64,000 bases of DNA from an uncultured virus (IMG/VR IMGVR_UViG_3300042691_055981) (IMGVR_UViG_3300042691_055981); one strand, 5' to 3'; positions 35,546 to 64,000 are shown, counted from the stretch's first letter. Notes: generated from the sequence alone by a model not told the origin. Made by a program: numbers and translations.

Positions 35546-35546
35546 A

Positions 35547-40459: not shown

Positions 40460-40465
40460 AATCTT

Positions 40466-40837: not shown

Positions 40838-40869
40838 AATCTTTTATACGATTAGATTGTGTGAGAAGT

Positions 40870-41397: not shown

Positions 41398-41433
41398 CTT
41401 GAATTTACAACTAAAACACTGGTTTACCTAAAT

Positions 41434-44559: not shown

Positions 44560-44700
44560 GATCAGATCTCGTTTTTCTCTGAAGTATTGCTGTGCTCTTT
44601 CGAGACTAATGCCACCATCTGCGTACCGCGTGACAAATCTTTCGTCCATTGCACTTAATTCAATATTTGATATATCTGTTTCCAATTTCAAATTTGCCCC

Positions 44701-45748: not shown

Positions 45749-46195
45749 TTAATTTTCATCATGATTAAATTCCTCTTCCCTATCAACAATCTCCGTGGTC
45801 GGCGTATAAGGGAATTCAACAGGCACGAAGCTATCTGAGCTTGTCCATGTGCTACCGTCCGGATCTCTAAAAACTTTCCCATTAATATCGTATGCCTGTC
45901 CGTTGAATCTATCCGCTTGTTTGAACAAGCCGCTATATCTTTTGTTCTGGAAACAGCCGTCGGAACACTCAAACCACTCGTTGTCTTCACCTGACAGAGG
46001 CGTGATAGGCTTAAAATTTGCAAGCTCCTTAAATAACCTCAAAGCCCAAGAAGCAGAAAAACCAGAGTGACCCTGCTCAGAGAAAACCTCGATAAGCTTG
46101 AGTACATCTTCGGCCATGGCTTCATTCATTACATCGCCATCGAAATAACCAGCGAATTCAAGTTCTGATTTTGCGAAATCAAGTAAATTACTCAT
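45749..46195 (-). CDS. conserved phage hypothetical protein (FSEQGHSGFSA...PL.G...EW...QNKR)
   Basis: Recognisable motif; CACAATCT-N5-TATAAA-N6-ATG upstream. Confidence 0.75.
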   Translation of the reverse strand: MSNLLDFAKSELEFAGYFDGDVMNEAMAEDVLKLIEVFSEQGHSGFSASWALRLFKELANFKPITPLSGEDNEWFECSDGCFQNKRYSGLFKQADRFNGQAYDINGKVFRDPDGSTWTSSDSFVPVEFPYTPTTEIVDREEEFNHDEN

Positions 46196-46444
46196 TGTTA
46201 TTTTATACGATCAGATTGTGTTAGGAGTTTCAGGAAAACTTAGTCCATTTTTTTCCGCATCTCAAGCAATGAAAATCACACCACCAACAATCGTCATTTC
46301 GATCCCAGTTTCCTGTATCTGATCCTGGCTTCTTAACAAGATCTTTCTCAGGATGAGGGCATTTTTCTTGAATTTTGAAGATTTTTTGATCTATTACAAC
46401 TCTTTCTTGAAATAATTTTTCGATTGATGGTAGCATGGTTTTTC

Positions 46445-46786
46445 TCATTCGTCTTCTCCGTCTACACTGATTAAATCAAAGAATTTTTGTCTCTCAGCTG
46501 GAGTTTTAGAAAGAAGAAATTTTCTTTGCTCGCTCCCATCCAGATTTAAAAATTTTGACTCATCCACCCAATCTTCGTCATTTGGGTTTTGAAAATCCAT
46601 CCCGCACACAATCTCGCCGCCATTTGCGATATGTTCTCGCACCATCTTAACCAATTCTTCCTCAGTAAGATCACTATGAGCTTCAAAACTAAGCTTAACC
46701 GTGGCATTAACTTTAAGAAGCACACGATCAAAAAGATCAGGATGTTTTGCGAAAAACTCGTCAGAATGCTCTTGATAACTATTCAT
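46445..46786 (-). CDS. hypothetical protein, leaderless start
   Basis: ATG at the last promoter element. Confidence 0.75.
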   Translation of the reverse strand: MNSYQEHSDEFFAKHPDLFDRVLLKVNATVKLSFEAHSDLTEEELVKMVREHIANGGEIVCGMDFQNPNDEDWVDESKFLNLDGSEQRKFLLSKTPAERQKFFDLISVDGEDE

Positions 46787-47025
46787 ATCTACATTATACC
46801 TTCAGATTGTGAAAGATGGAAAAACGCTCCTGGCCTACGAGAGTTAGCAATTCTCCGCAGCACCAGGCTTTTCAGCGTTAATAGATATACGATATTCAAA
46901 CATAAAAAGTTCTAATTCAAAGACGTTTTACACTTGATGGCACCACGCTCAAATAACTTAAGTGTCTTTCGTTTAAGTATGAAAAAAAATGAAACTTTTT
47001 TGAAATTTGATTGTATATTAATAGT

Positions 47026-48891
47026 ATGGCAAAAAATTACATAATCGGAATTGATCTTGGCACGACCAACTCGTGCGTTGCTGTTATGGAGGCTGGAGAA
47101 GCCAAAATAATTTCGTCGTCTGAGGGTGGGCAAACCACACCATCTGTCGTTTCTTGGAAGAAAGATGGAGAGAGGATTGTCGGGGTATCTGCGAAGCGAT
47201 CTTCGATCCTTAACCACCAAAACACAATCTCATCAGTTAAGCGATTCATGGGGCACAAGTATGATGAAGTGGCTCAAGAAGCTAAAAAGGTAACATATTC
47301 TGTTAAGAAAAATAAGAAAGGATTAGCTGTTATTGAAATTCCAGCCGTGGGTAAAGAATTCACCCCGGAAGAAATCTCAGCTGCAATCCTTCAAAAGATC
47401 AAAGCTGATGCTGAAAGTTATCTTGGAGTAGAAGTGAGCAAGGCTGTTATTACAGTGCCCGCTTACTTCGATGATTCACAAAGACAAGCCACGAAAAATG
47501 CCGGAGAAATTGCTGGCCTTGAAGTGGTGAGGATTATCAATGAACCCACCGCTGCCGCTCTTGCATATGGTGTTAGCAAGGACAAAGAAGGGTACATCTT
47601 AGTGTTTGACCTTGGAGGCGGAACATTTGATGTCTCGGTTCTTGATATTGGCGATGGCACTTTCGAAGTTCTTGGAACAAGCGGCGATTCACACCTTGGT
47701 GGTGACGACTTTGATAATAAAATTTCAGATTGGGTTGTTACTGAAACACTTAAAAACACTGGAGTGGATATTTCAAAAGATAATGCTGCGATGCAAAGAG
47801 TTAAGGACGCGGCGGAAAAAGCTAAGATTGAGCTTTCTACGCAAGTCACCACATCAATCAATCTTCCATTCATTACAGCTGTAGATGGAAATCCAGTTCA
47901 CGTTGATCTTGAGTTGACAAGGGCGAATTTCGAAAATATGGTTAAGGATTTGATTGAAAGAATTAAGCAACCAGTTCTCACGGCTCTTAATGATAGTGTA
48001 AATGATAAATCGAAGATCAATGAGGTTATCCTGGTTGGTGGAAGCTCGCGGATTCCATGCGTTCAGGCTCTGATCAAAGAGATCACAGGCCTTGAGCCAT
48101 CTAAGGGAGTTAATCCAGATCTAGCTGTGGCTCTCGGAGCGGCTGTCCAGGGTGGAATTCTTGCGGGCGATGTTAAGGATATTATCCTTCTCGATGTCAC
48201 GCCACTTAGTTTGGGTGTGGAAGTTAATGGAGGAATGGTTGATGTTCTTATCCCTAAGAATACTACTATTCCTACTCAGAAGAAAAGTGTGTACACCACT
48301 GCTGTAAACAACCAGACAGAAGTTACAATTCACATCCTCCAGGGTGAACGCCCTATGTCCAAGGACAATAAAAGTATTGGAATGTTTAATCTTTCTGGGA
48401 TTGCTCCCGCACCTGCCAGAGTTCCTCAAGTTGAGGTTGACTTCTCGCTTGATGCTAATGGCATCTTAAGTGTTAAAGCGAAAGATCTTGGAACTGGAAA
48501 AGAGCAATCAATCACCATCACACAATCTTCAAACCTCGATCAAAGTGAAATTGATCGAATGGTCAAGGAAGCAGAAGAATATGCTGAAGCCGACAAGGAA
48601 GCTAAAGATTTTGTTCTGCTGAAGAATGAAACTGAAATGCTATGTTCCAGCATTGAGTCAACCATCGAAATGGCAAAAGACAAGGCTGAAGACAGTTTGA
48701 TTAACGATGTGCAGGTGGCTTTGGACGCAACGAAGGAAGCATTAAAAGCTAATGAAAAATCTGAAATCCAAACTGCTAAAGAAAATCTGCTTCAGGTTTC
48801 GCATAAGCTTTCTGAGGTTCTGTACAAGAATGTAGCTGAATCTACTCCGTCTGACGAGGAAGTTATCGAAGCGGAAGTGGCGGAAGCCTGA
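47026..48891 (+). CDS. dnaK: chaperone DnaK (Hsp70)
   Basis: GIDLGTTNS, ITVPAYF, INEPTAAA, DLGGGTFDVS, LVGGSSRIP, LLDVTPLSLG; TATATT-N6-ATG upstream. Confidence 0.98.
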   Translation: MAKNYIIGIDLGTTNSCVAVMEAGEAKIISSSEGGQTTPSVVSWKKDGERIVGVSAKRSSILNHQNTISSVKRFMGHKYDEVAQEAKKVTYSVKKNKKGLAVIEIPAVGKEFTPEEISAAILQKIKADAESYLGVEVSKAVITVPAYFDDSQRQATKNAGEIAGLEVVRIINEPTAAALAYGVSKDKEGYILVFDLGGGTFDVSVLDIGDGTFEVLGTSGDSHLGGDDFDNKISDWVVTETLKNTGVDISKDNAAMQRVKDAAEKAKIELSTQVTTSINLPFITAVDGNPVHVDLELTRANFENMVKDLIERIKQPVLTALNDSVNDKSKINEVILVGGSSRIPCVQALIKEITGLEPSKGVNPDLAVALGAAVQGGILAGDVKDIILLDVTPLSLGVEVNGGMVDVLIPKNTTIPTQKKSVYTTAVNNQTEVTIHILQGERPMSKDNKSIGMFNLSGIAPAPARVPQVEVDFSLDANGILSVKAKDLGTGKEQSITITQSSNLDQSEIDRMVKEAEEYAEADKEAKDFVLLKNETEMLCSSIESTIEMAKDKAEDSLINDVQVALDATKEALKANEKSEIQTAKENLLQVSHKLSEVLYKNVAESTPSDEEVIEAEVAEA

Positions 48892-48920
48892 GCTGGTTAA
48901 AAACTGAATACAGTTTTTTG

Positions 48921-48949
48921 AAAGAGAGTGCTTGCACTCTCTTTTTTTT
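48921..48949 (+). terminator. intrinsic terminator after dnaK
   Basis: AAAGAGAGTGC-TT-GCACTCTCTTTTTTTT. Confidence 0.85.
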
Positions 48950-49197
48950 GCAGGTATAGAAGTAAAAAAAATGTAAAAATATCTTGATGGTGGAAATTGC
49001 TGAATCAGCTAAATTTTATTCGGGAGAAAGATTGTTACGGGTTATCAATCCCGGTTTTTATAACGAATCTGACTTAGTTGAAGTTTGTTACGACGAAGAT
49101 CTGACGAATTTTCCTATTGGCTCGGCCCAGGCACATTACATAGTTTACGGATACCATCTTGATGAAGAACGAAGCGTAAGCGAAGAGGAGACCACCA

Positions 49198-51684
49198 ATG
49201 GCTAGAATTTCTACTGAATATAATTTTGTCGGCTCAGCGTCCACTGGCCCATTAGAAAGCTTAGGGGCTCCTTCAGGCATCGCAGTCACTTTTTTTGGTG
49301 CTCCCGGTGCAACTACTTATGGATACAGGATCTCGGCATTAAATGGTTATGGAGAAACACTGGCTTCATCTTCGATTTCGCTAACAGTTGGCAATGCATC
49401 TTTAAGTGCGTCAAACTTTAATAGAATTGTGTGGGATAAAGTGATCGGAGCTAACTCATATAAAGTTTACGGCAGAACTCTTGATTCTGAATTATTCATG
49501 GCTTCTATTTCATCAAATGCTTATTTTGATGACACAGGCACTGTTACACCATCTGGTGCATTACCATTGGTTAATACCACGGGTTATTCTTCTACCAGAA
49601 CATCAATGGGAACATTAATGGTTCAAAAAACTGGGCCTGGGGCTAATGATAACTGGGTTGGGCCGATTCCCGTGGCTTTTGCAAGACCAGCAGAATCATC
49701 CCCGGCCATTCCAACATTCATGCCACATGCTATCAGGTGGAGCACGGAAAAAGATTGGGTGTTCTTTGCGGATAACGCAGCAGCGGCGGTCACTAGAAGA
49801 ATTTATTATGCAACATACAACCGTGCTAATAACAATTTGGCGTTAGAAGGATTTATCAATCTTGGGTATGCAGTGTCAAACACAGCCCACACAATTCGTG
49901 GCTTCAGAATGACATATGATAAATATAATGATGGAAGCATTTACGGCGTAGGAACAACCATAAGGGGAACGAATACAGCATGGGCTTCAAATCTTATACC
50001 GAGAGGTTGTCGAATCGGATTTGGTGCACCAGATCCTGTGTATATAACTCGTTGGTATGAAATCAGCGAAGTGACTAATGACAACACTATTAGGTTGACC
50101 ACCCCACTGGATGTAGGTTATGCTACAAACACGCCTTACGTTATCGAAGATCTAAGGGCGATATCTGCAAATACAAATGCAACAGTTGCTGGTGGGGGGG
50201 TGAACGTCACCAAGGGATTAAGGCCTGAAATATTCACTGTTTCTGGTATAACAATTGGGGTTTCAACTCTTGACGGATTCAGGGCCACTTATTGGCTCAG
50301 AGATGGAAATGTAGCTCCTCTCGGTCTTAACACGAATGCTATAGGAATGGCATTAGTTCCTAAAACGGGTTTCACCACTCAGATGTGTTATGTGCTTGAC
50401 GGAGTGGGTAACGCACCTGGGACAAGGGTGCATGCTTATAATATAAGAGCACCCCTAACGGGCATAGGAACCGGAGTTGGTGGATTCACCACTGGAAGTA
50501 CATTTAGAGGCTGGATGTATTCCACCGGTGCTCAGACTCTATCTGGAACCGCTGGGCAAGTTAATAATGGAAGATATGGAATATTGAATCATGGCCCAGG
50601 TGCTGGCGTTGAATGTATTTACTTCACTACCGGAACGAGAGTTTACCGAGCGGTGGTGTCAGATATTGTAAATGGAACTGTGGGGTGGATTTCAGATTGT
50701 ATGGTTGAAATTCCGCCCGGAAGTGTAAATACATATGCTGCTACAGGCAGCATGGCACAAGTTGAAATTGCAGACTCGATTGATAGATTAATTATTTCCA
50801 CTACAGGTGCGTCCGGGGCAAGAAATTACGTTACCAGATATCAAACATTTGTCGAGCAATTTGATATCATATGGGCGATTGATACTGGGCAACTTGACCA
50901 ATCATCGGCAATTCCCACTGTTCCAATTTTACCTGGAAATTCTAGGACCTCTAACTTCACCGTGTGGTCTGAATCGGGTCTAACTTATCTGAATAGAACC
51001 CAGACCACCATACCCCTGAACCAAATTTATACGGTGCCTTTCGGGGCACATTGGGGATTGACGACAAATCAAAGGATCATCACCGCTGCTATTAACACAC
51101 CAACCGCTGTTTCTTACAGCAAGGCGGTTATAGTCGATGTTAGGAAATTTGGTTCTGATCAATTTGCAGTACAATCTGAACCATATAATGTTTATTACAG
51201 AACTTATGGGATAACGGACAATTCCGGAGAATGGACTTTGCTACCCGAAAATGGCAGTCTTACTGGTGTATCCCCTGCGGATCAGATACAGTTTATGATT
51301 GAATTTAAAATCATAGGAAACTATTGCCTACCTGCAAGGATAATATCTATGGAAGTTATTTATAACATTGATGACAGTCTTCCATCGTTCTTGCAGTGGA
51401 ACTTTAGTGACTCCGATAATGCTGATGGAACGGTAGGGTTCATACAAAAAGGCACTTATGGAAGTGTACCAACGCTTCAGATAAATTATTATAGGGCTGA
51501 CAATGATGTAAACCTTTTAACTCAAGATAGCACATCAACAGCTTATGGCAACTTCCAGTTCTGGAACGGAGCAAGTTGGGTCAATGGTTTAGGAACCGAC
51601 ACTGATGGACTCAGGAGAAGATTTGTTCCTACGGCGGGACTTCCGAGTAACACGAATGTTTACTCGAAGATCAAGGTGATTTAA
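49198..51684 (+). CDS. putative tail fibre / virion structural protein, paralog 1
   Basis: 828 aa, Thr/Gly/Ser-rich beta-type composition; colinear with the next two genes. Confidence 0.6.
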   Translation: MARISTEYNFVGSASTGPLESLGAPSGIAVTFFGAPGATTYGYRISALNGYGETLASSSISLTVGNASLSASNFNRIVWDKVIGANSYKVYGRTLDSELFMASISSNAYFDDTGTVTPSGALPLVNTTGYSSTRTSMGTLMVQKTGPGANDNWVGPIPVAFARPAESSPAIPTFMPHAIRWSTEKDWVFFADNAAAAVTRRIYYATYNRANNNLALEGFINLGYAVSNTAHTIRGFRMTYDKYNDGSIYGVGTTIRGTNTAWASNLIPRGCRIGFGAPDPVYITRWYEISEVTNDNTIRLTTPLDVGYATNTPYVIEDLRAISANTNATVAGGGVNVTKGLRPEIFTVSGITIGVSTLDGFRATYWLRDGNVAPLGLNTNAIGMALVPKTGFTTQMCYVLDGVGNAPGTRVHAYNIRAPLTGIGTGVGGFTTGSTFRGWMYSTGAQTLSGTAGQVNNGRYGILNHGPGAGVECIYFTTGTRVYRAVVSDIVNGTVGWISDCMVEIPPGSVNTYAATGSMAQVEIADSIDRLIISTTGASGARNYVTRYQTFVEQFDIIWAIDTGQLDQSSAIPTVPILPGNSRTSNFTVWSESGLTYLNRTQTTIPLNQIYTVPFGAHWGLTTNQRIITAAINTPTAVSYSKAVIVDVRKFGSDQFAVQSEPYNVYYRTYGITDNSGEWTLLPENGSLTGVSPADQIQFMIEFKIIGNYCLPARIISMEVIYNIDDSLPSFLQWNFSDSDNADGTVGFIQKGTYGSVPTLQINYYRADNDVNLLTQDSTSTAYGNFQFWNGASWVNGLGTDTDGLRRRFVPTAGLPSNTNVYSKIKVI

Positions 51685-51685
51685 T

Positions 51686-54121
51686 ATGGCAAAAATTTGC
51701 GTGGAAAGCATAATGACTGATCCATATTGCCCTATTGAGAGCTTGCTTTCGCCTGGTGGAGTGTCTGTTACCCCGATAGGCACTGCAGGAGGCACAACTT
51801 ACGGATACCGAATTTCAGCAGTAAATTATGCAGGAGAAACGCTTGCATCTAGCACTGTTACAACATCTACTGGAAACGCAGTTCTATCTTCTACAGACTT
51901 CAACAGAATAACATGGTCACCTGTGCAATTTGCCACCAGCTATAAGATATACGGAAGGACATCGGGCTCTGAATTGCTGATAACTACAGTAACAGATTAT
52001 TATTTTGATGATTTCGGCTCGTTATCGCCTAGTGGAGCATTACCAACTACTAACTCAACAGGGTATAGCTCTAGCAAGATAAGCATCGGCTCGATGTTCA
52101 CGTCTCTATCAGATGGATCTATCTCAGTATTGCCAATAGCCGTTTCAAGACCTAGAGAGGCAGCTGGTGCGGTTCCTATCAATATTGGGTGTGCGGTTTC
52201 CTATGATAGCTATACAGATTTGGTTTTTGGTGCTGATAACGCTTCTGCGGGAGCAACGAGAAGAATTGTTCTCTACAAATATCTAAAACAATCTGGTGTT
52301 TTAGACTACATGGGTTTTGTTACACTGAACTTTCCATCTGGAGTCCCGTCATATGCTATTCGCGGGTTGCAGGCTTCTTATAATATCTATAATAAGGGGT
52401 TTGTTAATGGAGTGGGATGGGCAATAACAGGAACAAATACAACATGGCTTACTGATGGCATGGCTGTGGGCAGTAGAATCGGATTTGGCACGATTAACCC
52501 CAGTAATGTTAAAAGATGGTATGGTATAACATCGGTTTTCTCAGATACCACTATTGGATTAAATACAATCTTGGATTTTGGACTAAATGCTAATTCTGTG
52601 TATTGCATTGAAGATTTAAGATTGATCACTTCTGTAACAAATGGCACCACTACATTTTCGGGGCTCCATGTAACAAAAGGGCTAAGAATGGAGGATTTCA
52701 CAGCCACAGGAACAGCAATAACTTCTGCTGTGGTTACAGATCGTCAGAAGGCCACTTATCTTCTCTGTGGTGCGGCAAATACAAACCCTTTAGGTGTTGA
52801 TATAGAACCGTTTTCATCTTGGACAGACCAAAGTGCGTATTTTGTTAATAACAACGCCTCACCAGTAAGCATTCAGAAATTCAATATCAGGGCTCCTCTA
52901 AATAGATTCCTAGGTGGTGGAGTGAGCAATGATGGATTTGTTTTAACTACAGGAACTCAAGCAGTCACAGGAACTCCGAGCCAGGTTGGAAATGGAAGAT
53001 TGGCCGTGGCGAGCCACGGCCCAGGTGCTGGAGTAACCTCATTGTATTTCGTCACAACAAACAACGTATACAGAGCGGCTACGCCGGGGATAGTTAACGG
53101 GAGCACTACCTTCTTAAATAATAATATGCTTGAAAACCCGCCTGGCAGGGACAATACTTATGGTTTAACGTCCACCTTGAACACAATCGACTATATTCCT
53201 GGAAATGATAGATTCCTAATCTACACTACGGCGGCCAACGGAACGAGACATTACATCACGCAATATGGGATTAATACAGAGTATTCTGGTATTTTCGGTC
53301 TGGAATCCACACAAACGGATTCCTCATTGGGTTTCCCCGAAATATGCCCACCTACGCCAAATGCCGGGAGTTTATTTCAACATTTCAGTTATTCTTTAGG
53401 AAATATAACATACGTCTTCAGAGACAACACTACTACAGCCCAGGGGCAGCTTTACACTATGAATTTTGCTAGTGATTTTGGCACAAGCTTGGTGGGTAAT
53501 AGTCAGTTTATCATCAGTCCCACTTTAAGTTGCCCAAATAACGCAATGTTTGATTCAGTTTATGTGAATGTTCAAAGAAGCTATAACACCGGTAATGTTT
53601 ATAATCAGATGCCTCCAGCACCATACAGGATATGGTATCGCACTTCTGGTTTTGCAGACAACACAGGAATATGGACTTCAGCCCCCGCTAATGGGATTTT
53701 GACATCTATCGGAATTTCAACATTAATTCAATTTAGAGTGGGGCTAAGAACTATAGGAAACACGCTATACCCTAATAGAGTTTATGCAATCGGAGTTAAT
53801 TATGAAAATACAACTGATCTTCCATCATATCTAAACTGGAACTTTTCAGATTCTGTAAGTAGCACAGGCGTGGTTGGATTCATTCAGAATTACTACTACG
53901 GAAGTGTTCCTAACTTGAGAATTGATTATTTTGATGCCGCAACTAATGTGAATATTTTAACACAAACCAGCTTAGCTTCGACAAACGGAACATTCCAATT
54001 TTGGAATGGGTCTGGGTGGACTGTTGGGCTTGGATCTGATTTAATAAATCAAAGACGCAAATTCGAACCAAGTCTAGCTCTTGGATTTTCGAGTTATTAT
54101 GTGAGGTTAGCAACAATCTGA
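51686..54121 (+). CDS. putative tail fibre / virion structural protein, paralog 2
   Basis: 811 aa; shared YRISA.N..GETL, RIGFG, FQFWNG motifs. Confidence 0.6.
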   Translation: MAKICVESIMTDPYCPIESLLSPGGVSVTPIGTAGGTTYGYRISAVNYAGETLASSTVTTSTGNAVLSSTDFNRITWSPVQFATSYKIYGRTSGSELLITTVTDYYFDDFGSLSPSGALPTTNSTGYSSSKISIGSMFTSLSDGSISVLPIAVSRPREAAGAVPINIGCAVSYDSYTDLVFGADNASAGATRRIVLYKYLKQSGVLDYMGFVTLNFPSGVPSYAIRGLQASYNIYNKGFVNGVGWAITGTNTTWLTDGMAVGSRIGFGTINPSNVKRWYGITSVFSDTTIGLNTILDFGLNANSVYCIEDLRLITSVTNGTTTFSGLHVTKGLRMEDFTATGTAITSAVVTDRQKATYLLCGAANTNPLGVDIEPFSSWTDQSAYFVNNNASPVSIQKFNIRAPLNRFLGGGVSNDGFVLTTGTQAVTGTPSQVGNGRLAVASHGPGAGVTSLYFVTTNNVYRAATPGIVNGSTTFLNNNMLENPPGRDNTYGLTSTLNTIDYIPGNDRFLIYTTAANGTRHYITQYGINTEYSGIFGLESTQTDSSLGFPEICPPTPNAGSLFQHFSYSLGNITYVFRDNTTTAQGQLYTMNFASDFGTSLVGNSQFIISPTLSCPNNAMFDSVYVNVQRSYNTGNVYNQMPPAPYRIWYRTSGFADNTGIWTSAPANGILTSIGISTLIQFRVGLRTIGNTLYPNRVYAIGVNYENTTDLPSYLNWNFSDSVSSTGVVGFIQNYYYGSVPNLRIDYFDAATNVNILTQTSLASTNGTFQFWNGSGWTVGLGSDLINQRRKFEPSLALGFSSYYVRLATI

Positions 54122-56535
54122 TGGCCAAAATAGCAATTGAACACAATTTTGGTTCTCCCGTAGTACCATTGGTTGATTTATCTAGCCCTAGCGAGCTATC
54201 TGTTACTAATTTCGGAAGTGCTGGGGCTACAGCTTATACTTATTATGTTTCAGCTTTAAACTCTTCAGGCGAAACTTTGACAGAAGAAATTAGCACTAGC
54301 ACGGGTAACGCGAGTTTGTCCGCTTCAAACTTTAATAGAGTATCTTGGGAAAAAGTATGGGGGGCTACTAGCTATAAGATCTACAATGATTCTGGTTTAT
54401 TAGGAACAACATCAAATCTGCATTTTGATGACACTGGTGGAGCTGCTACAGCTGCAAGTTTACCTACCGCAAATTCCACGGGTTACAATCCAAACTTCAC
54501 ATCCGTGGGAACGCTGATGTATCAACAATCGGGGAGCATCGGCCCAATCCCTGTTGCAGTGGCTAGACCAATGCAACAATCTACCGCTATTACTTGCAGC
54601 TTCCCTGCTGTAATACCTTGGAGCTTTACATTAGATTGGGTTTTTCTAGCAGAAGGGTCGGCGGCGGCTGCAACCAGGCGGATTGTCTTATATACATTTA
54701 ATAGAGCTACAGCTTCCTTTACATGGCAGGGTTTCATAACATTAACATTCCCCACTGCAACAAACCATATCATTAGGGGGATAGCGGTTGATTATAACAT
54801 ATATACTACAGGAACTGTAGCTGTTTCTGGTACTGCGGTTACGGGAACAGGAACACTCTGGCAAACAGACAGAATGTGTGTTGGTAGTAGAATTGGCTTT
54901 GGCTCAACAGACCCAAATCAGATTGGTACATGGTATGAAATTTCAGCAATCACTAATAACACCAGTATAACACTTACTGGCTCAGCTGGCACTATTAATG
55001 CTAATTCGGTTTATTGTATTGAAGATTTGAGAATAAACGTCTCAACTACAAATGCTACAACAACTAATGGTGGACTGTTCGTGGCAAAAGGTATTAGATT
55101 TGAAAATTTCACCTCTGGTGGGACTACCATACTCGCTGCGGTGACAACGGACAATATTCGGGCGGTTTATTGGTTGTCTGATGCGGCAGTTGTAACAAAT
55201 ACAATAGCTACAGGTTTAGCCTTAGGCGATATCATAGACTGGCAGACACAAAATGTTTATATTGTAGATACTCCTTCGGGGTCTAACGTCAGATGCTATG
55301 TCTACAATGTAAGAGCATCATTAACGGGGCTCGCTTCTGGAAAATCTTCAGCTGCTTTTAGGTTTTCAACCGGAACACAAACGGTACCAGGAACAGCACC
55401 CCAAACTAATAATGGAGAAATCATCACCACTCAACAAGAGCATGGTGCAGGAGTTCCATCTTTATATTTCGTTACCACAACCAGGGTTTGCAGATCAGAG
55501 CTTTCCGAAATAACTAACGGTAATCTGTATTGGGTGAATGATTTAATGGTCGCATTGCCGCCAGGTGGGGCAAGTAATTTAGCATCTATCGGGGCCTTAA
55601 CCTATGTAGAACATTTAGACTTTATGGACACGTTTCTTTTATATAGTTCTGGAAATAATAGAAGCTATGTGTCAGATTATAATGTTTCGCAGAAAACTTT
55701 TCCCACGGTGTACACAATAGAGTCAAAGCAATTCGACTCAACTTTAGCAAGTTCTCTTTCAGCTCCTCATCCACAAATTGGCAGCGTTGGATTAATTTCA
55801 TGGAACGAAGAAGGGATGAGTTATCTTGTGAGGCAATCAACCTCCTTAACGCTTAATCAACTTTATGCCGTTCCGCAATCTGCATGCTACACGCTTGGGC
55901 ATATTGCGGGGAGAGAACAGGATGTTATTACGCCAGCAATCCCTACTCCAGCTAATTGCAGAGTGTATAGAGTGTACGCCAACGCTTTATCTTCATATGG
56001 AGGCTCTGACGCATTCTTAATTCCGCCAGAGGTTATCAATTTGTCATATCGGTTTGAGGGAGTGGCAGATAATACAGGAGCTTGGATACCACTTCCAGAT
56101 AGTGGTTTAATATCCGGCACACAAACTGGACAAGATATTCAATTTAGAATTCAATTTAAAGTATTAGGTTTCTTCCAATTACCCAGCAGTATTAACGGAA
56201 TTAATGTGGTTTATGAAACAGACACAGATATTCCAAGCTTCCTTCAGTGGAATAATGATGACACAAGTAACACAACTGGTGCCATTGGATTCATACAAAT
56301 ATCATCTTATGGAAGCGTTCCAGATCTAAATATTACATTCTACAGATCTGACAACGAAGATATTGTATTTTCGCAAGATAGCACAGTGACAACATATGGC
56401 AATTTCCAATTCTGGAACGGATCGTCGTGGGATAACGGACTGGGTACAGACACTGTGTTCTTGAGAAGAAGATTCCTTCCCAACAAAGGAACACTTACTG
56501 GTGTGAATGTTTATTGCAAAATTAAGGTGATCTAA
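54121..56535 (+). CDS. putative tail fibre / virion structural protein, paralog 3
   Basis: 804 aa; same architecture. Confidence 0.6.
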   Translation: MAKIAIEHNFGSPVVPLVDLSSPSELSVTNFGSAGATAYTYYVSALNSSGETLTEEISTSTGNASLSASNFNRVSWEKVWGATSYKIYNDSGLLGTTSNLHFDDTGGAATAASLPTANSTGYNPNFTSVGTLMYQQSGSIGPIPVAVARPMQQSTAITCSFPAVIPWSFTLDWVFLAEGSAAAATRRIVLYTFNRATASFTWQGFITLTFPTATNHIIRGIAVDYNIYTTGTVAVSGTAVTGTGTLWQTDRMCVGSRIGFGSTDPNQIGTWYEISAITNNTSITLTGSAGTINANSVYCIEDLRINVSTTNATTTNGGLFVAKGIRFENFTSGGTTILAAVTTDNIRAVYWLSDAAVVTNTIATGLALGDIIDWQTQNVYIVDTPSGSNVRCYVYNVRASLTGLASGKSSAAFRFSTGTQTVPGTAPQTNNGEIITTQQEHGAGVPSLYFVTTTRVCRSELSEITNGNLYWVNDLMVALPPGGASNLASIGALTYVEHLDFMDTFLLYSSGNNRSYVSDYNVSQKTFPTVYTIESKQFDSTLASSLSAPHPQIGSVGLISWNEEGMSYLVRQSTSLTLNQLYAVPQSACYTLGHIAGREQDVITPAIPTPANCRVYRVYANALSSYGGSDAFLIPPEVINLSYRFEGVADNTGAWIPLPDSGLISGTQTGQDIQFRIQFKVLGFFQLPSSINGINVVYETDTDIPSFLQWNNDDTSNTTGAIGFIQISSYGSVPDLNITFYRSDNEDIVFSQDSTVTTYGNFQFWNGSSWDNGLGTDTVFLRRRFLPNKGTLTGVNVYCKIKVI

Positions 56536-56831
56536 TGGCGAATACAGAGATTAGATACGGAGGTGGCGAGTTTAATCTAAACTTCACCACTTCACTATTA
56601 TTTAATCAAACAATTGTATCTATAACCGATCCACAAACTGAAACACTTATTGATTCAGGGGCACAATCTGCAATAGATGGAGTTTATGTTGAAAATGCAT
56701 ATTTCGGTTTGCAAGGCGGAAATAACATATCAAACATTGCTGTTATTCCCGGTGGTGGAGCATTCTTCTTCCAGATAGTACAAACGGCACAAGAGCTAAG
56801 AAGGGTATACCTACTCAAACGATGGTACTAA
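56535..56831 (+). CDS. small protein coupled to the fibre-like genes
   Basis: TAATG overlap with the upstream stop. Confidence 0.6.
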   Translation: MANTEIRYGGGEFNLNFTTSLLFNQTIVSITDPQTETLIDSGAQSAIDGVYVENAYFGLQGGNNISNIAVIPGGGAFFFQIVQTAQELRRVYLLKRWY

Positions 56832-58237
56832 CGGAATTTAACTGAGAAATTAAATGCGAATCTGTCAAACAGATGTGTATCCATGTTGTACTGAGCACTA
56901 AAGCTACCTAATCTTCCTGAATTAGTGACACTCATAAAATTCTGCTTCTGATCCTTAATCATCGAAAATGAAAAATTATTACTATTTTTATACATCACTG
57001 CGTAAATGTCGTTAATAACATCAGATGATAAGTTAAATTTAGGATTAACCAAACTAAAAGAAAAAGAGTCTTTGAATTGAGCCCGTGATTGGCCGATCAT
57101 TGAAAATGAATTTTCATAAACACTGAAAGCGTTCTGCTTAAAGTAAAAATCATAAACATCAAACTGATTATTATATTTCAATGAGACATTCGTGTTGCCA
57201 ATCATAGAGCTGTAACTAGCTTGCTCCATTCCATTTTCAGATGATGCCTTAATCGAGAAATTCTTAATTGGTTGCACAACCCCATAAGCTTCTCCATTCC
57301 TTACACCAAGATTACCCAGCTTGACATCATAATTTAAATCATCAACCCCATCAGACAATCTGTACTCCATCTTACCAATCTTTGATTGAATGAAGCTTTG
57401 GTCGTCTCCGTGAGCAATCGTTGTGCCTTTAAATTCCAACTGACTAATACTTGTATCATCATCGCTCGCCATCTTCAATTTATAATCTTTTCCTGAGACA
57501 TTCAAGAAGTTCTTAGAATAACCATCATTGAAATTTGTGTAAGATACACTATTTCCTTTAATGAAGTAATTAAGAGTATTTTCAGATCGACTGAGATGGT
57601 TTATGGAGCGAATTGACAAATTCTTTGAAGAATAAAGAACATCATCATAATTATCCATGATTTTAGCTTCTATTGAAGGAAGCTTCAGTGAAAGCTGTGT
57701 CTTGGATGCGTATGGTCTGTTCCAAGCGTCTAACATCATTAAAGGCGATTCAGAGCTAACATAATCCACTTTGATCTTTTTGTTAGCAAAAGAATAGCTA
57801 TCATAGCTGATATTGCCGGTGGTTTTCGACATTGACAATGAAAGATCTTTTTGCTTGTAAGATAGTGTATTTCTTTGGCTAATTAAGAGCTTTGACGCGA
57901 ACACATTCTGCACTTCATTTCTGTTAAAATCTTCAGATGTAAATGTCGCACCTCTGAATGTAATTCCGATTGTGTTTTTCGGCAAAGAACTGACATAACT
58001 CATTGTCATGTTGCTCAATGTTGTGTTGAAATTATGAACCTGAGAATTATTTGAAAAAGAGCCCGCATACTTCAGATTGCCAAGATCGTATTTTAAGGCA
58101 GATCCTGTCCAGTTAATCTTCTTATTTGCATCCACTGTGAAAGTAGATTTTCCGATAGGCAAAGATACATCTGCAGATTGTGAATTTGCAAATGCTGTAA
58201 TGAATGCTATCGAGATTGCTAAAGGGAGTTTCAACAT
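56828..58237 (-). CDS. exported beta-strand-rich protein, possible outer-membrane protein
   Basis: Signal peptide; alternating aromatic strands; C-terminal FAFNFSVKFR. Confidence 0.55.
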   Translation of the reverse strand: MLKLPLAISIAFITAFANSQSADVSLPIGKSTFTVDANKKINWTGSALKYDLGNLKYAGSFSNNSQVHNFNTTLSNMTMSYVSSLPKNTIGITFRGATFTSEDFNRNEVQNVFASKLLISQRNTLSYKQKDLSLSMSKTTGNISYDSYSFANKKIKVDYVSSESPLMMLDAWNRPYASKTQLSLKLPSIEAKIMDNYDDVLYSSKNLSIRSINHLSRSENTLNYFIKGNSVSYTNFNDGYSKNFLNVSGKDYKLKMASDDDTSISQLEFKGTTIAHGDDQSFIQSKIGKMEYRLSDGVDDLNYDVKLGNLGVRNGEAYGVVQPIKNFSIKASSENGMEQASYSSMIGNTNVSLKYNNQFDVYDFYFKQNAFSVYENSFSMIGQSRAQFKDSFSFSLVNPKFNLSSDVINDIYAVMYKNSNNFSFSMIKDQKQNFMSVTNSGRLGSFSAQYNMDTHLFDRFAFNFSVKFR

Positions 58238-58335
58238 AATATATTTCTGAACTTCTCTTATATTATACCTTGATTTTGTGAGAAATAGAAAAACCGAGCG
58301 AATCTTGCGTATCTATTTTTTGAGAGATAATTTCA

Positions 58336-58953
58336 TTATACTTTTCGAACTCCCTGTCTGCATTCATTACCTTTATGATGATCTACACTGTTATATTTTT
58401 TATTAACCATAAAACGCTTAAGTTGTTCATAGCTCACTGGGAAGTAATTCCAACAATCCACCCCAACATCACAAGAAAATGCATTTGGGTCATCTATCAA
58501 AGTGCCGTGGCTGTGGGCAAAAGCATTCCAAGACCCATAATGTGATTTATTCCATACCTTGAAAGCATAATGACAACAAACTATACTTTGCCAAGAGTCT
58601 TTAGCGTCAGAGTCTTTAACTTTTACTTCCAGGTAATCATAAATCCCACTAAACAATTGTTTAATTTGTCCGTCTTGTAATTTATCGTGATTACCCTTAG
58701 ATAAGATAATGTTTTTACATTTTAATTGATTTATAATTTCAACCCATTTGTCTAATGGCCCGAAGCAAAAATCACCGAGCATTAAAACCGTGTCGTCGGG
58801 TTTCACAACGCTATTGAAATTATCAATAAGTGCTTTATTCATTTCTGCCACGCTTTTGTATGGCCTGTCACAAAATTTAATTACGTTGGTATGATAAAAA
58901 TGTTGATCAGCGGTCAGCCAGAGCTTAGAAGAGTCATTGAAAGTTAAACTCAC
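58336..58953 (-). CDS. calcineurin-like metallophosphoesterase
   Basis: ADQHF.H, LGDF, GNHD, HSH, DVGVD. Confidence 0.9.
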   Translation of the reverse strand: MSLTFNDSSKLWLTADQHFYHTNVIKFCDRPYKSVAEMNKALIDNFNSVVKPDDTVLMLGDFCFGPLDKWVEIINQLKCKNIILSKGNHDKLQDGQIKQLFSGIYDYLEVKVKDSDAKDSWQSIVCCHYAFKVWNKSHYGSWNAFAHSHGTLIDDPNAFSCDVGVDCWNYFPVSYEQLKRFMVNKKYNSVDHHKGNECRQGVRKV

Positions 58954-59462
58954 ACTAGCATCCTGCCCACTGGAACATTAAACTTTAACGTGGGAATTCT
59001 CAAGTCTCTGTAAGCCTGGATATTATCCTCACTATCATCAACAGCATACACAATCTCATAATCAAGCATAAGTTTCATAGCCTCTTGCTTTTTGAAAACA
59101 GCATGATCAGATTGTGTTGTGAATTGATAATCATCAAAGTCTTCTGGTTGCATAATTAAGTAACAATCTTCACTCCAGATGCCTTCATCTTTAAGCCATT
59201 GAAGCGTAGGCTTATACCCACCAGCTCCTCTAGCTGTGATGAAGAATACACGATCTGGCTTATAGAACGTGCATAGCATATCAAGCAAGTCCACGCCAAG
59301 ATCAATCACTTCATCCCCGCGACAATCTGCATTATACCACTGGACAGATTTTATCCAAGCGGCTGAATCACGTCGGTTGTGAGCGTCCAGGTTAAGTCTC
59401 TTAAACCGCTGGGAGCTATCAACAAGTACCGCGTCCAAATCAAAAATTAAAGCTTTCATCAT
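58950..59462 (-). CDS. HAD-family phosphatase (Pnk phosphatase-like)
   Basis: FDLDAVL, ITAR, VDD. Confidence 0.75.
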
Positions 59463-60034
59463 TTTCTTAATATTTCATCCACAATTCCATAGTCAAGTGC
59501 CTCTTCGGCAGACATCCAATAATCTCTATCACAATCTTTCCTCACCTGCTCCACATCTCTTCCGGTGTGTTCAGATAAAATCTCCATAAGTCTATCCATA
59601 AGATAATTCGTCTCCTTAGCTTGTACATTGATATCAGCTATAGTTCCCCTGAATCCTGAAGATACTTGGTGAATCATTGTCCGAGAGTTTGGAAGAATTG
59701 ATCTTTTTCCTTTTTCTCCACCAGCTAAAAGCACAGCCCCCATTGATGCGGCCATTCCTACACATGTAGTGGCTACAGGACAAGACACAAACTGCATAAC
59801 ATCGTAGATAGCCAACCCAGCGTACACAGAGCCACCTGGTGAATTGATATACACATGAATGTCGGCTTTTGGATCCTCTTTCTCAAGGAAAAGCATTTGT
59901 GCATTAATCACATTTGCCATATGGTCATCTACGCCCTCTCCGATGAAGATAATTCTTTCCTTCAAGAGCCTAGAGAATAGATCATATGAGCGTTCTGTGT
60001 CACCTGTTTTTTCAATAACGTAAGGAATTAGCAT
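59459..60034 (-). CDS. clpP: ATP-dependent Clp protease proteolytic subunit
   Basis: [29 protein letters not shown]. Confidence 0.97.
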
Positions 60035-60052
60035 AGATGTATAATATACGGT

Positions 60053-60664
60053 GTGGATTACAAAATTATCTCAAATTCAGAAGAAGAATGTTTTATAGAA
60101 ATTATTAAAAATTCATTCAGAACAAGAATAGAATTAGACTGGACGCCAGAAAAAAATTTCAATGGGGTGGCTGTTGGATGCAATTACAGCTTTAAAGGGC
60201 ATCCTGTGGGCTTCCTGAAGGACAATGGCCTTATTCGCGGTGCAATAGACGGCAGAAGGCAGAGGGCTGTTTTCTGCGTGGATGAAACGGACACAATCAT
60301 ACAAGCTGGCCCATCTTTATTAATTGACGAAGAGCCTCAGAAAGATTTTAAAGCGGGGGGATTTGCCACACACTTTATTCTATCGGGATTACACTCACAC
60401 ATAGGCAAGAAGAAAAATGGCAATTACATAATTGGTTTCACGAAAAATTTAACATTCAATCAGATGATAGAGAAATATCAATCTTTGCAAGCTGAAGATG
60501 CAATTAAACTGCCTGGTCTTAAATATTGCTCTTACATTTTTCAGTCTAGGATTCAGACTGTGAAGCATGGCCTGTTTCCTGTTCCTGTAGCTTTAATTTT
60601 CGAGCCTAGACTCAAGGAATCCGGTGACCTCTTTAACGATGTCACCGAGCCCGTAGTGCTCTAA
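60053..60664 (+). CDS. degenerate phosphodiester glycosidase (NAGPA-like) domain protein
   Basis: QAGPSLL, HIG...G.Y, L.AEDAIKL; the usual NLDGGGS is replaced by KLPGLKY. Confidence 0.45.
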
Positions 60665-61363
60665 TAATTTGTAAATAATGTTGCTACATCTGTAGTTTGC
60701 AGATGGCAGATTGGGATCGGGCTTCTTATTGAAGTCTTTTCTCCTCTCATCTCTAATTTTATCAAAAAGAATAGACACCTTCACGGTCTGACTAATAATT
60801 TCTTCTAGTTCCTCTTGATTTCCAGAATAACCCTCAAGCATATTTTTGAGTGTCATGTACTCTTCTAGCACTTCATTGAACTCTTTTAAAGACGAGCAAT
60901 TTTTAATTATATCCTCAATATCGTCTTCGCTTATTGCCTCAGGTTTCTTTATCCATTTCTCGTTGGATAAATCATAGATTGCGTCTGCTTTAAATTTAAG
61001 ATATCTACGAGGGGAAAAGTAAAAATTCACAGGATGCTCATTTACAAATAGCTTCTCGTTAAAGCTATCAGCGGCAAGGGTATTCAGCTCTTTGTATTGA
61101 TCACCATCCAGCTCTTTCTTTAAAAAAATTGTAATATCTATGTCGGAATCTTTTTTCCATTGGTGAGTGAGGGTAGAGCCTAACGCCCAAATCTTATCCA
61201 CTTCATACCCAATCTGAGATGAGATCTTAGAAATCATGTTCAAGATTTTGTCTCTGATACTAGATCTGATTTTATCATCCACGATGATAGCTGGATCAAA
61301 TCCTGGCTTGATGGGGTCAATCACGCTATATTCTTGGGTTTTAGGCCGCATAAAGATTGACAT
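60593..61363 (-). CDS. Pol-beta-fold nucleotidyltransferase
   Basis: LGS...W...SDIDI motif; YDL...KWIKKP. Confidence 0.75.
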   Translation of the reverse strand: MSIFMRPKTQEYSVIDPIKPGFDPAIIVDDKIRSSIRDKILNMISKISSQIGYEVDKIWALGSTLTHQWKKDSDIDITIFLKKELDGDQYKELNTLAADSFNEKLFVNEHPVNFYFSPRRYLKFKADAIYDLSNEKWIKKPEAISEDDIEDIIKNCSSLKEFNEVLEEYMTLKNMLEGYSGNQEELEEIISQTVKVSILFDKIRDERRKDFNKKPDPNLPSANYRCSNIIYKLLEHYGLGDIVKEVTGFLESRLEN

Positions 61364-61507
61364 AGTTAATTATTTCTCTATTTATGAAGCTGATTCCTAA
61401 TTATAACAACACACATCCCGATTGTGAAGCCGCCAAGCACACCCCCAAGCAAAGCGGGATCTATGCATAAAAGCAATAGACAAATCGTAAGAATAAAAAA
61501 ATTATTC

Positions 61508-61804
61508 TTATTTGCCGCAGCCGCAATCGGCTTCTTCAATGTAAGATTTTTCCACTTTCTGCCAACACATAACGAGTGCATCGCCTTCTTCAGTCCATTT
61601 AACATAATCATCCTCGATTATTAGATCGTCTGCTGCAAAATAAGTTTGTGCCGCTTTAACAGCATTTTTCCTTAAAAGCTTTGGATTATCTAAAGAAAAA
61701 TTAACAAGCTTCGATCTAACATTAAAGTTTAAGGCGTGAAGATTGCAGTGCTTCAGCGTTTCAGTGATAATTTGTATTTCTTCGTCAGATAAATCAATCC
61801 ACAT
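61508..61804 (-). CDS. hypothetical protein
   Basis: ORF track. Confidence 0.55.
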   Translation of the reverse strand: MWIDLSDEEIQIITETLKHCNLHALNFNVRSKLVNFSLDNPKLLRKNAVKAAQTYFAADDLIIEDDYVKWTEEGDALVMCWQKVEKSYIEEADCGCGK

Positions 61805-61808
61805 AATC

Positions 61809-62525
61809 TTAGCTCTTTGATGAATTATACAAATTAAAGTTCAAATTTTTCGCCTTATTACTCTTTAGAAGATCATCAACAACTTTTCCTACTTTGAGCT
61901 TAGTTTGCAAATCTGTAGCTGTGATCTTGCCGCTGTCCCCGCCTTTTCTCTGCCATGTGATATGTTTGCCTAGACAGATCGTGGTTTTCTTGTCACTGAT
62001 AGTAAGCGGCTCTGACATAAGTAAACCAACAACATCATCATCTTTAGCCACCGTGATTCTACCATTCCAATTCACAAATACAAAATAATCTACATTGGAA
62101 TGTTCCATTAATGCACTGAGGATGATCTCTTCTTGAAACAAATGAATTGAGTTTTTAAAATCATCACTCAGCTGAAAGGGCTTCATTCGTTTCTTTTCTG
62201 GATAATATTCGCGGCCTGTGAACTTCGAAAGTTGATCTGCGTAGGATGAAGCAAGAGTGTCTCCCCATTTAGATACAGCACGTCGGTCTACTTGATTGAA
62301 TCCTTGACCGTTATATCTCTTGACTTGGAGATTCTTAGTAATAGCCCCATCTAAGCTCTTAATGATCAGATCGTGTTTTTGCCGGTCAACCACTTCAGCC
62401 ACGGAGGAAAAAGGCATATCTATCATTTTGCAAAAGTCGCTTCTAAAATCAGGATTTGTGTTAAAGATTTCCTTGATGGATTCTTCTAAGGCAAATCCTG
62501 ATTTAGCAATCTCAGATCCTGTCAT
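61809..62525 (-). CDS. type II restriction endonuclease, HinP1I family (predicted GCGC)
   Basis: GS.IAK.GF..E, K.D, N.QVK...GFNQ.D, FTG, KRM, T.QRKGGD.G..TA..LQ.K match R.HinP1I as recalled. Confidence 0.82.
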   Translation of the reverse strand: MTGSEIAKSGFALEESIKEIFNTNPDFRSDFCKMIDMPFSSVAEVVDRQKHDLIIKSLDGAITKNLQVKRYNGQGFNQVDRRAVSKWGDTLASSYADQLSKFTGREYYPEKKRMKPFQLSDDFKNSIHLFQEEIILSALMEHSNVDYFVFVNWNGRITVAKDDDVVGLLMSEPLTISDKKTTICLGKHITWQRKGGDSGKITATDLQTKLKVGKVVDDLLKSNKAKNLNFNLYNSSKS

Positions 62526-62542
62526 GCTTTAATATACGCTGA

Positions 62543-63007
62543 TTAAAGCAAGCATTTTCCTATGATTTGGCTTTTATGAATTAAACCGAAATTTTTTGAA
62601 TCAAAAGAGCCAGATCTGTTATCCCCTTCAACGAAGTAATAATTCTCGGGGATTTCCTTCAAAGATATTTTTTTGTTATTTTGTATGTGAAAGTTCAAAC
62701 CAGCTTTTTCTGACGCAAGCATATAACTGGCTTCTTTATTCAAATTTTCGACATACTTTTCGCCACGCATAGCTGTAATTCTTTTAACAATGATTCCGTT
62801 TTTCATTTTAATTACTATAATATCGTCTAGGAAAAGTGGATTGATTTCTTTCGTAGCAAGAACAAGTTGATTGTTCTTCAGAACGGGCTCCATAGAGCCG
62901 CCTTGGACAACAACAAAAAAATCATTACTGGGCTTAGACACGCACAAGAATATGCAGATAGCAAAAAACAATCTGAGAAACCGCTTGAAATTATTAGATA
63001 GTTTCAT
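62543..63007 (-). CDS. lepB: signal peptidase I (S26)
   Basis: TM anchor, GSMEP (Ser), VKRI (Lys), GDNR..S.DS..FG. Confidence 0.9.
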   Translation of the reverse strand: MKLSNNFKRFLRLFFAICIFLCVSKPSNDFFVVVQGGSMEPVLKNNQLVLATKEINPLFLDDIIVIKMKNGIIVKRITAMRGEKYVENLNKEASYMLASEKAGLNFHIQNNKKISLKEIPENYYFVEGDNRSGSFDSKNFGLIHKSQIIGKCLL

Positions 63008-63080
63008 TGTTTGTGCCCTTATATTATTTCTCTAAGGCTGGGCACAAACCTGGGGGAATTGTTAAGACAAAGTGAAGGTG

Positions 63081-63470
63081 TGGTGGAGGCGTCGGGGTTC
63101 GAACCCGATTGTTTTCGAATCAGCGTCTGGCTTCTACACAATTAGTTTATTTGTTACCGACTTTTGATCAATAAGCACAATTAAACAAAGCTTTATGATC
63201 TTGCATCTTGATTTTTATATCATACAAGATTTGATATTTTTCACCAGATTCATTTAAAGAAAATAGAACGCTACTGGTTCGCCTTCATATTTTCCAGACC
63301 GCTTAAGCAGTCATTGTAGCCGCACCATAGCCGAAGCCAGGATTGAATCTACGGGTTTTCTTTGATGTTTTTGCATCTATTTTTTGATCTTCTTTTTAAG
63401 TGGCCGGAAGATCAACCACTTTGTGCGACCTAGAGTCTGACATTCGAAAGTCGATACCAAACTCGCCCCC
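63081..63470 (-). ncRNA. ssrA: tmRNA; tag ORF 63374-63303 encodes AKTSKKTRRFNPGFGYGAATMTA*
   Basis: 5' GGGGGCG...GGTATCGAC, 3' GGGTTCGAACCCCGACGCCTCCACCA, G3-U70 pair, AATAGAT-GCA resume context. Confidence 0.9.
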
Positions 63471-63521
63471 ATACAACTATATTATACGATTTTAAACGCG
63501 GAAAAACCTATTATTTGCAAT

Positions 63522-63869
63522 TTAATCACAATCTTGAGAAATCCATCTTCTCATTTGTAGATGGTCAAAAGCGTTTCTCAAGATGTCAACAGATAAATCA
63601 CAATCTGACATTGATCTGAACACCTTCTCAATGGCGTATAACGCATTTCCACGCTCGACAGAAGAATAATCTGCGGAAGCAACATCCGCTGAGAAATAAG
63701 CAACAGAAAAGCCCCTAGTGCCCTCTGCCAGATACTCCATCGCTAGGGTGATTATTGCCTGTGCTTCCTTTAGCGTGTTTCTGTATGTTCCTTGGTACAT
63801 ATTTTTCAATTCGCCAGAAACAAAAAAATTCCTCAGACCATTAAGATCTGAGGAACGCAATGCAATCAA
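63522..63869 (-). CDS. hypothetical protein
   Basis: ORF track; start uncertain. Confidence 0.5.
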   Translation of the reverse strand: MIALRSSDLNGLRNFFVSGELKNMYQGTYRNTLKEAQAIITLAMEYLAEGTRGFSVAYFSADVASADYSSVERGNALYAIEKVFRSMSDCDLSVDILRNAFDHLQMRRWISQDCD

Positions 63870-64000
63870 AAGTAATCGTTACTTACCGAATGGGATCGAG
63901 AATCCAAGACCAAATACATAGCCCCGGTTGCCATCCTGGAGTCGGAAGTTATCAGCAAGATTAAGACCCTTCATACCTCCGAAGAGAGTGAGCTTATATC

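Follow-up and report, generated by a model that had tools for sequence, protein, structure and literature searches.

A restriction enzyme is generally regarded as lethal to a carrier that lacks the partner methylase, and where restriction sites are missing from phage genomes, their absence is commonly attributed to escape from the enzymes of the host. The nucleases that phage T4 directs at host DNA degrade cytosine DNA, and the hydroxymethylcytosine DNA of the phage itself is not a substrate. R.HinP1I (Pfam PF11463; structures PDB 1YNM and 2FKC) cuts G^CGC, and the recognition site of PacI, with its 8 bp, is long and rare. PacI is a solitary bacterial restriction enzyme without a methylase, a case that was explained by a genome of the carrier that is free of the site (PMC3488263). 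Chloroviruses (PBCV-1 and its relatives) package restriction enzymes that are directed at the host chromosome (PMC7019647, PMC7253447), and for the restriction enzyme of the Marseillevirus GATC system, use as a weapon against co-infecting viruses without such a system was proposed (PMC7253447). Solitary restriction genes were also counted in phages, 12 in 831 phages, with no link to site absence seen in the available part of that survey (PMC4176335). Here we analyse a stretch of 64,000 bases (the window) from IMG/VR record IMGVR_UViG_3300042691_055981, a large uncultured freshwater phage; the stretch carries a gene for a HinP1I-family nuclease and not a single GCGC.

The exact count of GCGC was zero on both strands of the window. 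In 100 shuffles of the window that preserved its dinucleotides, the word occurred 63.9 times on average (standard deviation 8.6), and the observed count was below that of every one of the 100 shuffles. An order-2 Markov model predicted 56.9 occurrences, for which the Poisson probability of finding none is about 2e-25. These exact 4-mer counts bear out the preliminary description of this DNA, which had called the window free of GCGC, with CGCG occurring roughly 40 times and GGCC and CCGG being common: CGCG, which has the same composition as GCGC, was counted 43 times against 43.5 expected, GGCC 83 times and CCGG 61 times. GCGC is the sole tetramer of the 256 with a zero count, the next rarest being ACGT with 42 occurrences. 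None of the 16 NGCGCN contexts is present in the window, though 1 to 6 occurrences were expected for each of them, and the avoided word is thus the 4-mer and not a 6-bp site.

To what extent the protein sequences dictate this absence can be read from synonymous-codon shuffles, in which protein sequences and codon usage were held fixed. In 300 such shuffles of 62 open reading frames (ORFs; 14,523 codons), GCGC occurred 39.3 +/- 5.6 times, with a minimum of 25, against zero observed. The absence has therefore been achieved via codon choice and codon neighbourhood. It continues in a contig of the same phage (L004) that reaches 5,394 bases beyond the window end, where no GCGC was found against 4.2 expected; the window and this extension together hold none against about 61 expected.

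The searches of this phage for methylases and for GCGC cover the same 69.4 kb, window and extension. Pfam scans of the 82 ORFs of the window revealed no DNA methyltransferase family, in agreement with the earlier statement that no methyltransferase lies beside the nuclease gene or elsewhere in the window, and the same scans gave none in the 9 ORFs of the 5.4-kb extension. Within the 69.4 kb seen, the locus lacks the defining feature of a Type II restriction-modification system, a cognate and normally adjacent methyltransferase.

The product of the nuclease gene scores 28.9 bits with the Pfam model PF11463 (R-HINP1I), whose cut-off is 25; the match has an E of 9.7e-7 and spans profile positions 40-203 of 208. 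On its own the protein aligns over its full length with the R.HinP1I chain 1ynm_A of PDB 1YNM (E 1.7e-4), and a profile of the six-member clade to which it belongs does so with E 5.7e-13. The nuclease is predicted to have the HinP1I/MspI-type monomeric PD-(D/E)XK fold: when its AlphaFold2 model (pLDDT 85.6) was submitted to Foldseek, the best match was DNA-bound HinP1I (E 6.7e-12, TM 0.72), among 3 matches in total at E <= 0.001. In the alignment to 1ynm_A, from which the numbering of the catalytic residues is taken, E18, D62 and Q81-x-K83 of HinP1I correspond to E14, D52 and Q67-V-K69 of the nuclease. The base contacts of HinP1I are named as K96, Q93 and K223 in the HhaI structure paper (PMC7026639); our comparison covers these three residues, whose counterparts in the nuclease are R81, Q78 and K194. 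Across 44 aligned family members, no variation is seen at E14, D52, K69 and K194, and hardly any at Q78. All 6 clade members (48-100% identity) retain the catalytic and contact residues, position 81 being either R or K (K in 2 of the 6). The preliminary description had matched the ORF to R.HinP1I along its length, and both the search with the family model and the full-length alignment with its retained residues agree with this.

Judging from these alignments, the ORF is a divergent, intact and full-length HinP1I-family nuclease. It is 21-25% identical to HinP1I (238 against 247 amino acids, aa) and 21-31% identical to canonical family members. The spacer between D and QxK has 14 residues, 4 fewer than the 18 of HinP1I, H51 replaces S61 of HinP1I, and the C-terminus carries an additional segment of some 25 residues. 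The clade is small, comprising 6 proteins among 5.8 billion, or 3 clusters among 1.84 billion representatives, where the whole family amounts to 188 at E <= 0.001; one member, 50% identical to the window protein, lies on contigs as long as 276 kb. A DNA run from a different study yielded contigs with the identical gene sequence. NCBIfam and PHROGs assigned no family to the nuclease, 50,697 phage records contained no close DNA or protein match to the region or the nuclease, an exact 34-base word of the gene was absent from IMG/VR, and a search of 185,579 species genomes with the clade profile gave 175 candidate stretches, none of which was confirmed.

A natural comparison is offered by the closest relative of the window, an IMG/VR record of 347,392 bases that is rated 99% complete (G001). 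It is syntenic with the window, and the identities are 69% for a 469-aa protein, 80% for a HAD protein, 85% for ClpP, 62% for a nucleotidyltransferase, 68% for the 98-aa gene that flanks the nuclease gene on one side, 41% for the S26 peptidase that flanks it on the other, 86% for DnaK and 69% for the ligase. In G001 the S26 homologue (322563-322982) and the 98-aa homologue (322997-323290) have 14 nt between them, and this spacer takes the place of the 717-base nuclease gene of the window. No HinP1I-family member was found in G001 with the clade profile or with the Pfam model, which matched another genome (G006) in the same search. With 6 family proteins as tblastn queries, the best E in G001 was 0.26, and the window as positive control was matched by 6 of 6 at E <= 2e-6. 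G001 contains 228 GCGC against 283 expected, so that a relative without the gene at the exact locus retains the site, the outcome that the preliminary description had envisaged. Across 13 orthologous gene pairs (9,420 aligned bases) G001 has three GCGC, and at all three the window uses synonymous codons. Neither a PF00145 nor a PF01555 methylase was found in G001, and the lineage therefore appears to rely on avoidance rather than on methylation. Since the 98-aa gene is retained in the nuclease-less G001, it is not a dedicated partner of the nuclease. We also considered a deletion scar in G001, where the spacer, together with the bases before it, is similar to the 3' end of the nuclease gene of L005, a contig described below; this candidate was rejected, as the resemblance (score 16, equalled by 7% of shuffles) is too weak to choose between gene loss and gene gain. 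The window maps to both ends of G001 (17058-22283 to 2047-13625, and 37533-63007 to 347386-322563), and G001, though classed as a provirus, thus has the appearance of a complete phage genome that is circularly permuted.

Eight distinct loci with HinP1I-family genes came out of scans of IMG/VR and of one metagenome (L063 repeats L001, and L070 is identical to L069). A locus scan among these used an alignment of 15 sequences, that of 44 being too diverse for the purpose. All four carriers with neither a 5-methylcytosine (m5C) methylase nor Vsr nearby have zero GCGC: the window (57 expected), L005 (7.8 expected), L002 (7 expected) and L065 (21 expected). They represent three unrelated lineages, namely the clade of the window and L005, L002, and L065, and the other purged words differ among the four (GGWCC; GATC; AGCT with GGWCC; GGCC). 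Carriers with a methylase-nuclease-Vsr arrangement, or with Vsr at a contig edge, retain GCGC in both informative loci: L069, with the complete operon, has 44 sites against 70 expected, and L064, in which Vsr is present and the methylase side is cut by the contig edge, has 8 against 7. The genes of L001 and L071 lie beside C5 methylases, and with fewer than one site expected these two loci are uninformative. In L071, a record labelled as a giant-virus metagenome-assembled genome (MAG) with 23% G+C, the HinP1I-family gene is immediately followed by the C5 methylase (3231-5130) in a chlorovirus-style pair. Non-carriers retain GCGC in their 21-kb loci, with 78 sites against 70.5 expected in G003, 18 against 15.3 in G004 and 15 against 15.6 in G005.

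L005, a metagenome contig of 11,757 bases, carries a nuclease of the same clade (70% identity) in the same gene order, with the 98-aa gene at 9231-9527, and no methylase was found in its 11.7 kb. GATC is absent from it against 46 expected, and occurs in the window 295 times against 369 expected. In L002, a carrier unrelated to the window, a staphylococcal-nuclease (SNase) homologue directly follows the HinP1I-family gene, and in L065 the nuclease gene lies among genes for dUTPase, ribonucleotide reductase and polymerase, a setting that fits a role in nucleotide supply. Among the relatives and the other carriers, the presence of the gene is linked with the absence of GCGC. The earlier reading of an unpaired enzyme combined with a purged site is supported in part by this survey, in which the other methylase-less carriers are GCGC-free as well.

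The reading that we favour, with a probability of roughly 0.57, is that the gene encodes an active, GCGC-specific HinP1I-family enzyme without a cognate methylase, which is harmless to the carrier phage through the absence of its site and cuts other DNA. The ORF would then be a monomeric, Type IIP-like endonuclease recognising GCGC, and its carrier a large phage of the lytic type that has no cognate cytosine methyltransferase. Having no GCGC in its DNA, the phage would be immune to its own enzyme, and the enzyme would in turn keep the genome site-free, any new GCGC being cut in every infection and the count being held at zero. The host chromosome would be cut at GCGC during infection, which could bring about shut-off and supply nucleotides, and/or the enzyme could cut co-infecting phages and plasmids and so exclude them. 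An SNase-like ORF of the window, situated far from the nuclease gene, might tentatively be assigned the role of a non-specific helper that breaks down the cut DNA.

A number of observations weigh against this proposal. A host GCGC system of the HhaI or HinP1I type could have driven out the sites, as would have happened with GGWCC and in part with ACGT, and the nuclease gene would then be a passenger or a captured gene that is tolerated since the sites had already gone and that adds little to the purge. Site avoidance is recognised as a phage strategy (PMC6286503), and the window shows the wide avoidance that is typical of host pressure: GGWCC occurs 3 times against 41 expected, with no matching nuclease known, ACGT 42 times against 100, GTAC 50 times against 93 in coding sequence, and seven 6-bp palindromes (CGATCG, CTCGAG, TCGCGA, CCGCGG, AACGTT, CACGTG and AGTACT) do not occur at all. 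A distant relative of 109,785 bases (G002; ligase 47% identical; rated 64% complete) has no GCGC against 214 expected, and no CTAG against 151 expected. Neither the profile nor the Pfam model nor tblastn revealed a HinP1I-family member in its 109.8 kb, and its 119 scanned ORFs matched no family of restriction nucleases or methylases; a full purge can therefore exist in the absence of the gene, provided that the gene is not in the missing third of that genome. Many ORFs of G002 are unannotated, and several encode HNH and LAGLIDADG endonucleases. G001 in its turn is nearly devoid of CCGG (2 against 103 expected) and GGCC (9 against 331) and lacks CYCGRG (0 against 26), and no MspI- or HaeIII-family match was found in it, the HaeIII blank being weak because its model matched no control genome. 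Strong purges without a recognisable nuclease of the phage's own are presumably the work of host systems, and a host GCGC system could explain the window too. The host itself could be called neither from TnpB, whose 25 loci in the species genomes are mostly from archaeal or planctomycete MAGs (best identity 44%), nor from DnaK, for which all 40 of 40 phage records were under 60% identity and had mixed hosts. What makes us regard a purely host-driven purge as unlikely is the clade itself, which is small, old and only 21-31% identical to canonical members, unlike a recent capture from a host. Moreover, the window and L005 have the GCGC purge alone in common and differ in GATC, ACGT and GGWCC, and the three unrelated methylase-less lineages are all GCGC-free, each with different other missing sites. 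If GCGC were methylated in the host, the enzyme would be without a host target and there would be little reason for its conservation. The age and isolation of the clade, with GCGC as the only purge common to the window and L005, favour a cause that travels with the phage. As to the direction of cause, host pressure could have cleared the sites first and thereby made the gene affordable.

Free-standing homing endonucleases of phages are present or absent between conserved genes, as the nuclease gene is, and the protein may not be a GCGC restriction enzyme at all: it could be a selfish endonuclease of this homing type that spreads into relatives without the gene, have another specificity, nick DNA, or be inactive. 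Its low identity to HinP1I, the shortened spacer, H51 and the C-terminal extra would fit a changed function, the Pfam score lies just 3.9 bits over the cut-off, and we infer the GCGC specificity from the three named contact residues together with the absence of the site. Nevertheless, the family-invariant catalytic and contact residues are all retained, the sole missing tetramer is the known site of the HinP1I family, and for an altered specificity there is no other fully absent word to account for. In G001 the GCGC nearest to the empty locus lies at a distance of 1,075 bases, where the median spacing is 974, so that it is no closer than usual, which may count against the homing form. We consider this whole group of explanations improbable. 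More improbable still is a separated system, in which the gene is one half and a distant cytosine methyltransferase or a hypermodified base is encoded beyond the window. Contigs that bear the protein cluster of the nuclease are as long as 142,633 bases, which leaves at least 78 kb of the phage beyond view, and of 272 solitary restriction genes, 57 were predicted to have a distant methylase (PMC3488263). N6_N4-type methylases lie near the nuclease genes of L002 and L065, and if they make N4-methylcytosine (m4C) in GCGC, both loci leave the methylase-less class. Yet a protected DNA would be under no selection to lose all of some 57 sites in 64 kb, and the carriers with an adjacent m5C methylase do retain GCGC, as in L069. 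The lack of a methylase in 69.4 kb, and of PF00145 and PF01555 in the 99%-complete G001, likewise argues against a separated system.

The preliminary description is thus largely upheld, with the activity of the enzyme, its target and the direction of cause as its putative parts. A wider proposition, tentative and in our judgement just short of probable, is that unrelated phages carry methylase-less 4-bp cutters as weapons, their immunity being a purge of the enzyme's own word that is imposed and maintained by their own nuclease and not by the host. If true, this recurrent strategy would hold here for three independent HinP1I-family lineages (the clade of the window and L005, L002, and L065), part of the restriction-site avoidance of phages would be self-inflicted, and a missing word would predict the specificity of the encoded nuclease. 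If general, word absence would stand beside base modification and methylation as a new principle of distinguishing self from non-self in phage attack, nuclease specificities could be predicted from genome word statistics, and site avoidance in phages would have to be reread. That this locus occurs both with the gene and without it, GCGC being absent or present accordingly, suggests that a virus can replace a methylase by deleting a 4-bp word.

The coordinates of the features are given in Table 1. Just upstream of the nuclease locus lies a transfer-messenger RNA (tmRNA) gene, and downstream are a nucleotidyltransferase gene and clpP. In metatranscriptomes (three runs, three studies), contigs cover the tmRNA (63086-63462) and almost nothing else of the 5-kb stretch; they do not cover the nuclease gene and are uninformative on its transcription either way. 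Scans of 58000-64000 found 22 promoter-like and 5 terminator-like sites, where shuffles gave 18.3 and 4.0, and are uninformative as well. The gene content of the window is that of a large phage, with DnaK, ClpP, IF3, DNA ligase, an RNA-repair set, domains of the Lar, Tad3 and NADAR kinds, two TnpB genes and two tRNAs. IF3, DnaK and ClpP are common to the window and G001 (70-86% identity). The two TnpB copies are 81% identical overall and share a long identical central stretch, which suggests gene conversion between old copies; since no close copy was found in the 185,579 species genomes, they are long-standing residents rather than newcomers. The earlier remark that the purge covers the insertion sequence (IS) copies therefore carries little weight, although the copies are indeed within the GCGC-free stretch. 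Seven ORFs match one region of G001 (about 73.9-74.9 kb) with 39-56% identity and form a multi-copy paralogous family. Three consecutive ORFs on the strand opposite to most genes have no Pfam family and no match in G001, and the first has an N-terminus with a weak resemblance to tail sheath proteins of Streptomyces phages.

Table 1. Features of the window, with positions counted from its first base.
Feature	Coordinates	Strand	Basis or remark
GCGC-free stretch, coding and non-coding	1..64000		counts, tetramer ranking, synonymous-codon shuffles
HinP1I-family PD-(D/E)XK nuclease gene, 238 aa	61809..62525	-	catalytic E14, D52, Q67-V-K69; predicted base contacts Q78, R81, K194
S26/S24 signal-peptidase-like gene, upstream flank	62543..63007	-	Pfam PF10502, 65.9 bits; one boundary of the nuclease presence/absence polymorphism
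Conserved 98-aa gene of unknown function, downstream flank	61508..61804	-	no Pfam family; other boundary of the polymorphism
tmRNA gene	63081-63470	-	ARAGORN; Rfam RF00023, 102 bits; unusual predicted tag peptide
Staphylococcal-nuclease-like ORF	3537..3926	+	Pfam PF00565, 36.9 bits
Host-like genes: IF3, DnaK, ClpP, secretin N-domain protein	21774-22283, 47011-48891, 59459-60034, 33301-34149	mixed	full-length
Likely counter-defence run: Lar restriction-alleviation domain, T4-type RNA ligase 1, polynucleotide kinase-phosphatase, 2H phosphoesterase, NADAR domain, Tad3 Thoeris inhibitor	17482-17883, 31354-32475, 35547-36392, 40870-41397, 41434-41853, 45749-46195	-	
TnpB genes (IS605 OrfB / Cas12f-like)	30284-31399, 43443-44558	+	
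Seven ORFs of a paralogous family	6370-6888, 6947-7369, 8837-9454, 10300-11097, 11323-11988, 14435-14983, 21052-21762	-	
Three consecutive ORFs (828, 811 and 804 aa)	49198-56535	+	

Compared with R.HinP1I, the phage enzyme has the same catalytic E, D and QxK, the named base-contact positions and a similar length; it differs in its 21-25% identity, its shorter spacer, its C-terminal extra and its occurrence in a large phage, where it would cut GCGC. The canonical members on viral contigs (L001, L069 and L071) adjoin an m5C methylase, whereas the window nuclease does not. Chlorovirus systems likewise consist of virus-encoded restriction endonucleases in offensive use, as we suppose here; however, they protect their own DNA by cognate methylation and serve in algal hosts, while in the present phage self-protection would lie in site absence. 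Marseillevirus is also unlike it in having a cognate methylase, no site purge and a eukaryotic host. With host-driven site avoidance in phages the window has in common the loss of short palindromes, seen in GGWCC, ACGT and several 6-mers; but there the cutter is usually that of the host, and here the phage encodes a HinP1I-family enzyme and the purge follows the gene among relatives. As in T4, host DNA would be degraded and the phage's own DNA would be no substrate, although T4 marks its DNA chemically and the phage described here would rely on the absence of a word. In the literature searched, supplements aside, we found no phage case of protection by site absence, and the sole precedent found is the bacterial PacI. 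The carrier of PacI survives without a cognate methylase through the lack of the recognition site, and the same would apply here within the 69.4 kb seen; PacI, however, is bacterial, whereas in this virus the word has 4 bp, is expected about 57 times per 64 kb and was removed largely through synonymous codons. The phage enzyme would stand close to two known kinds, solitary restriction enzymes of the PacI type and viral restriction enzymes in offensive use, with site absence as its putative protection.

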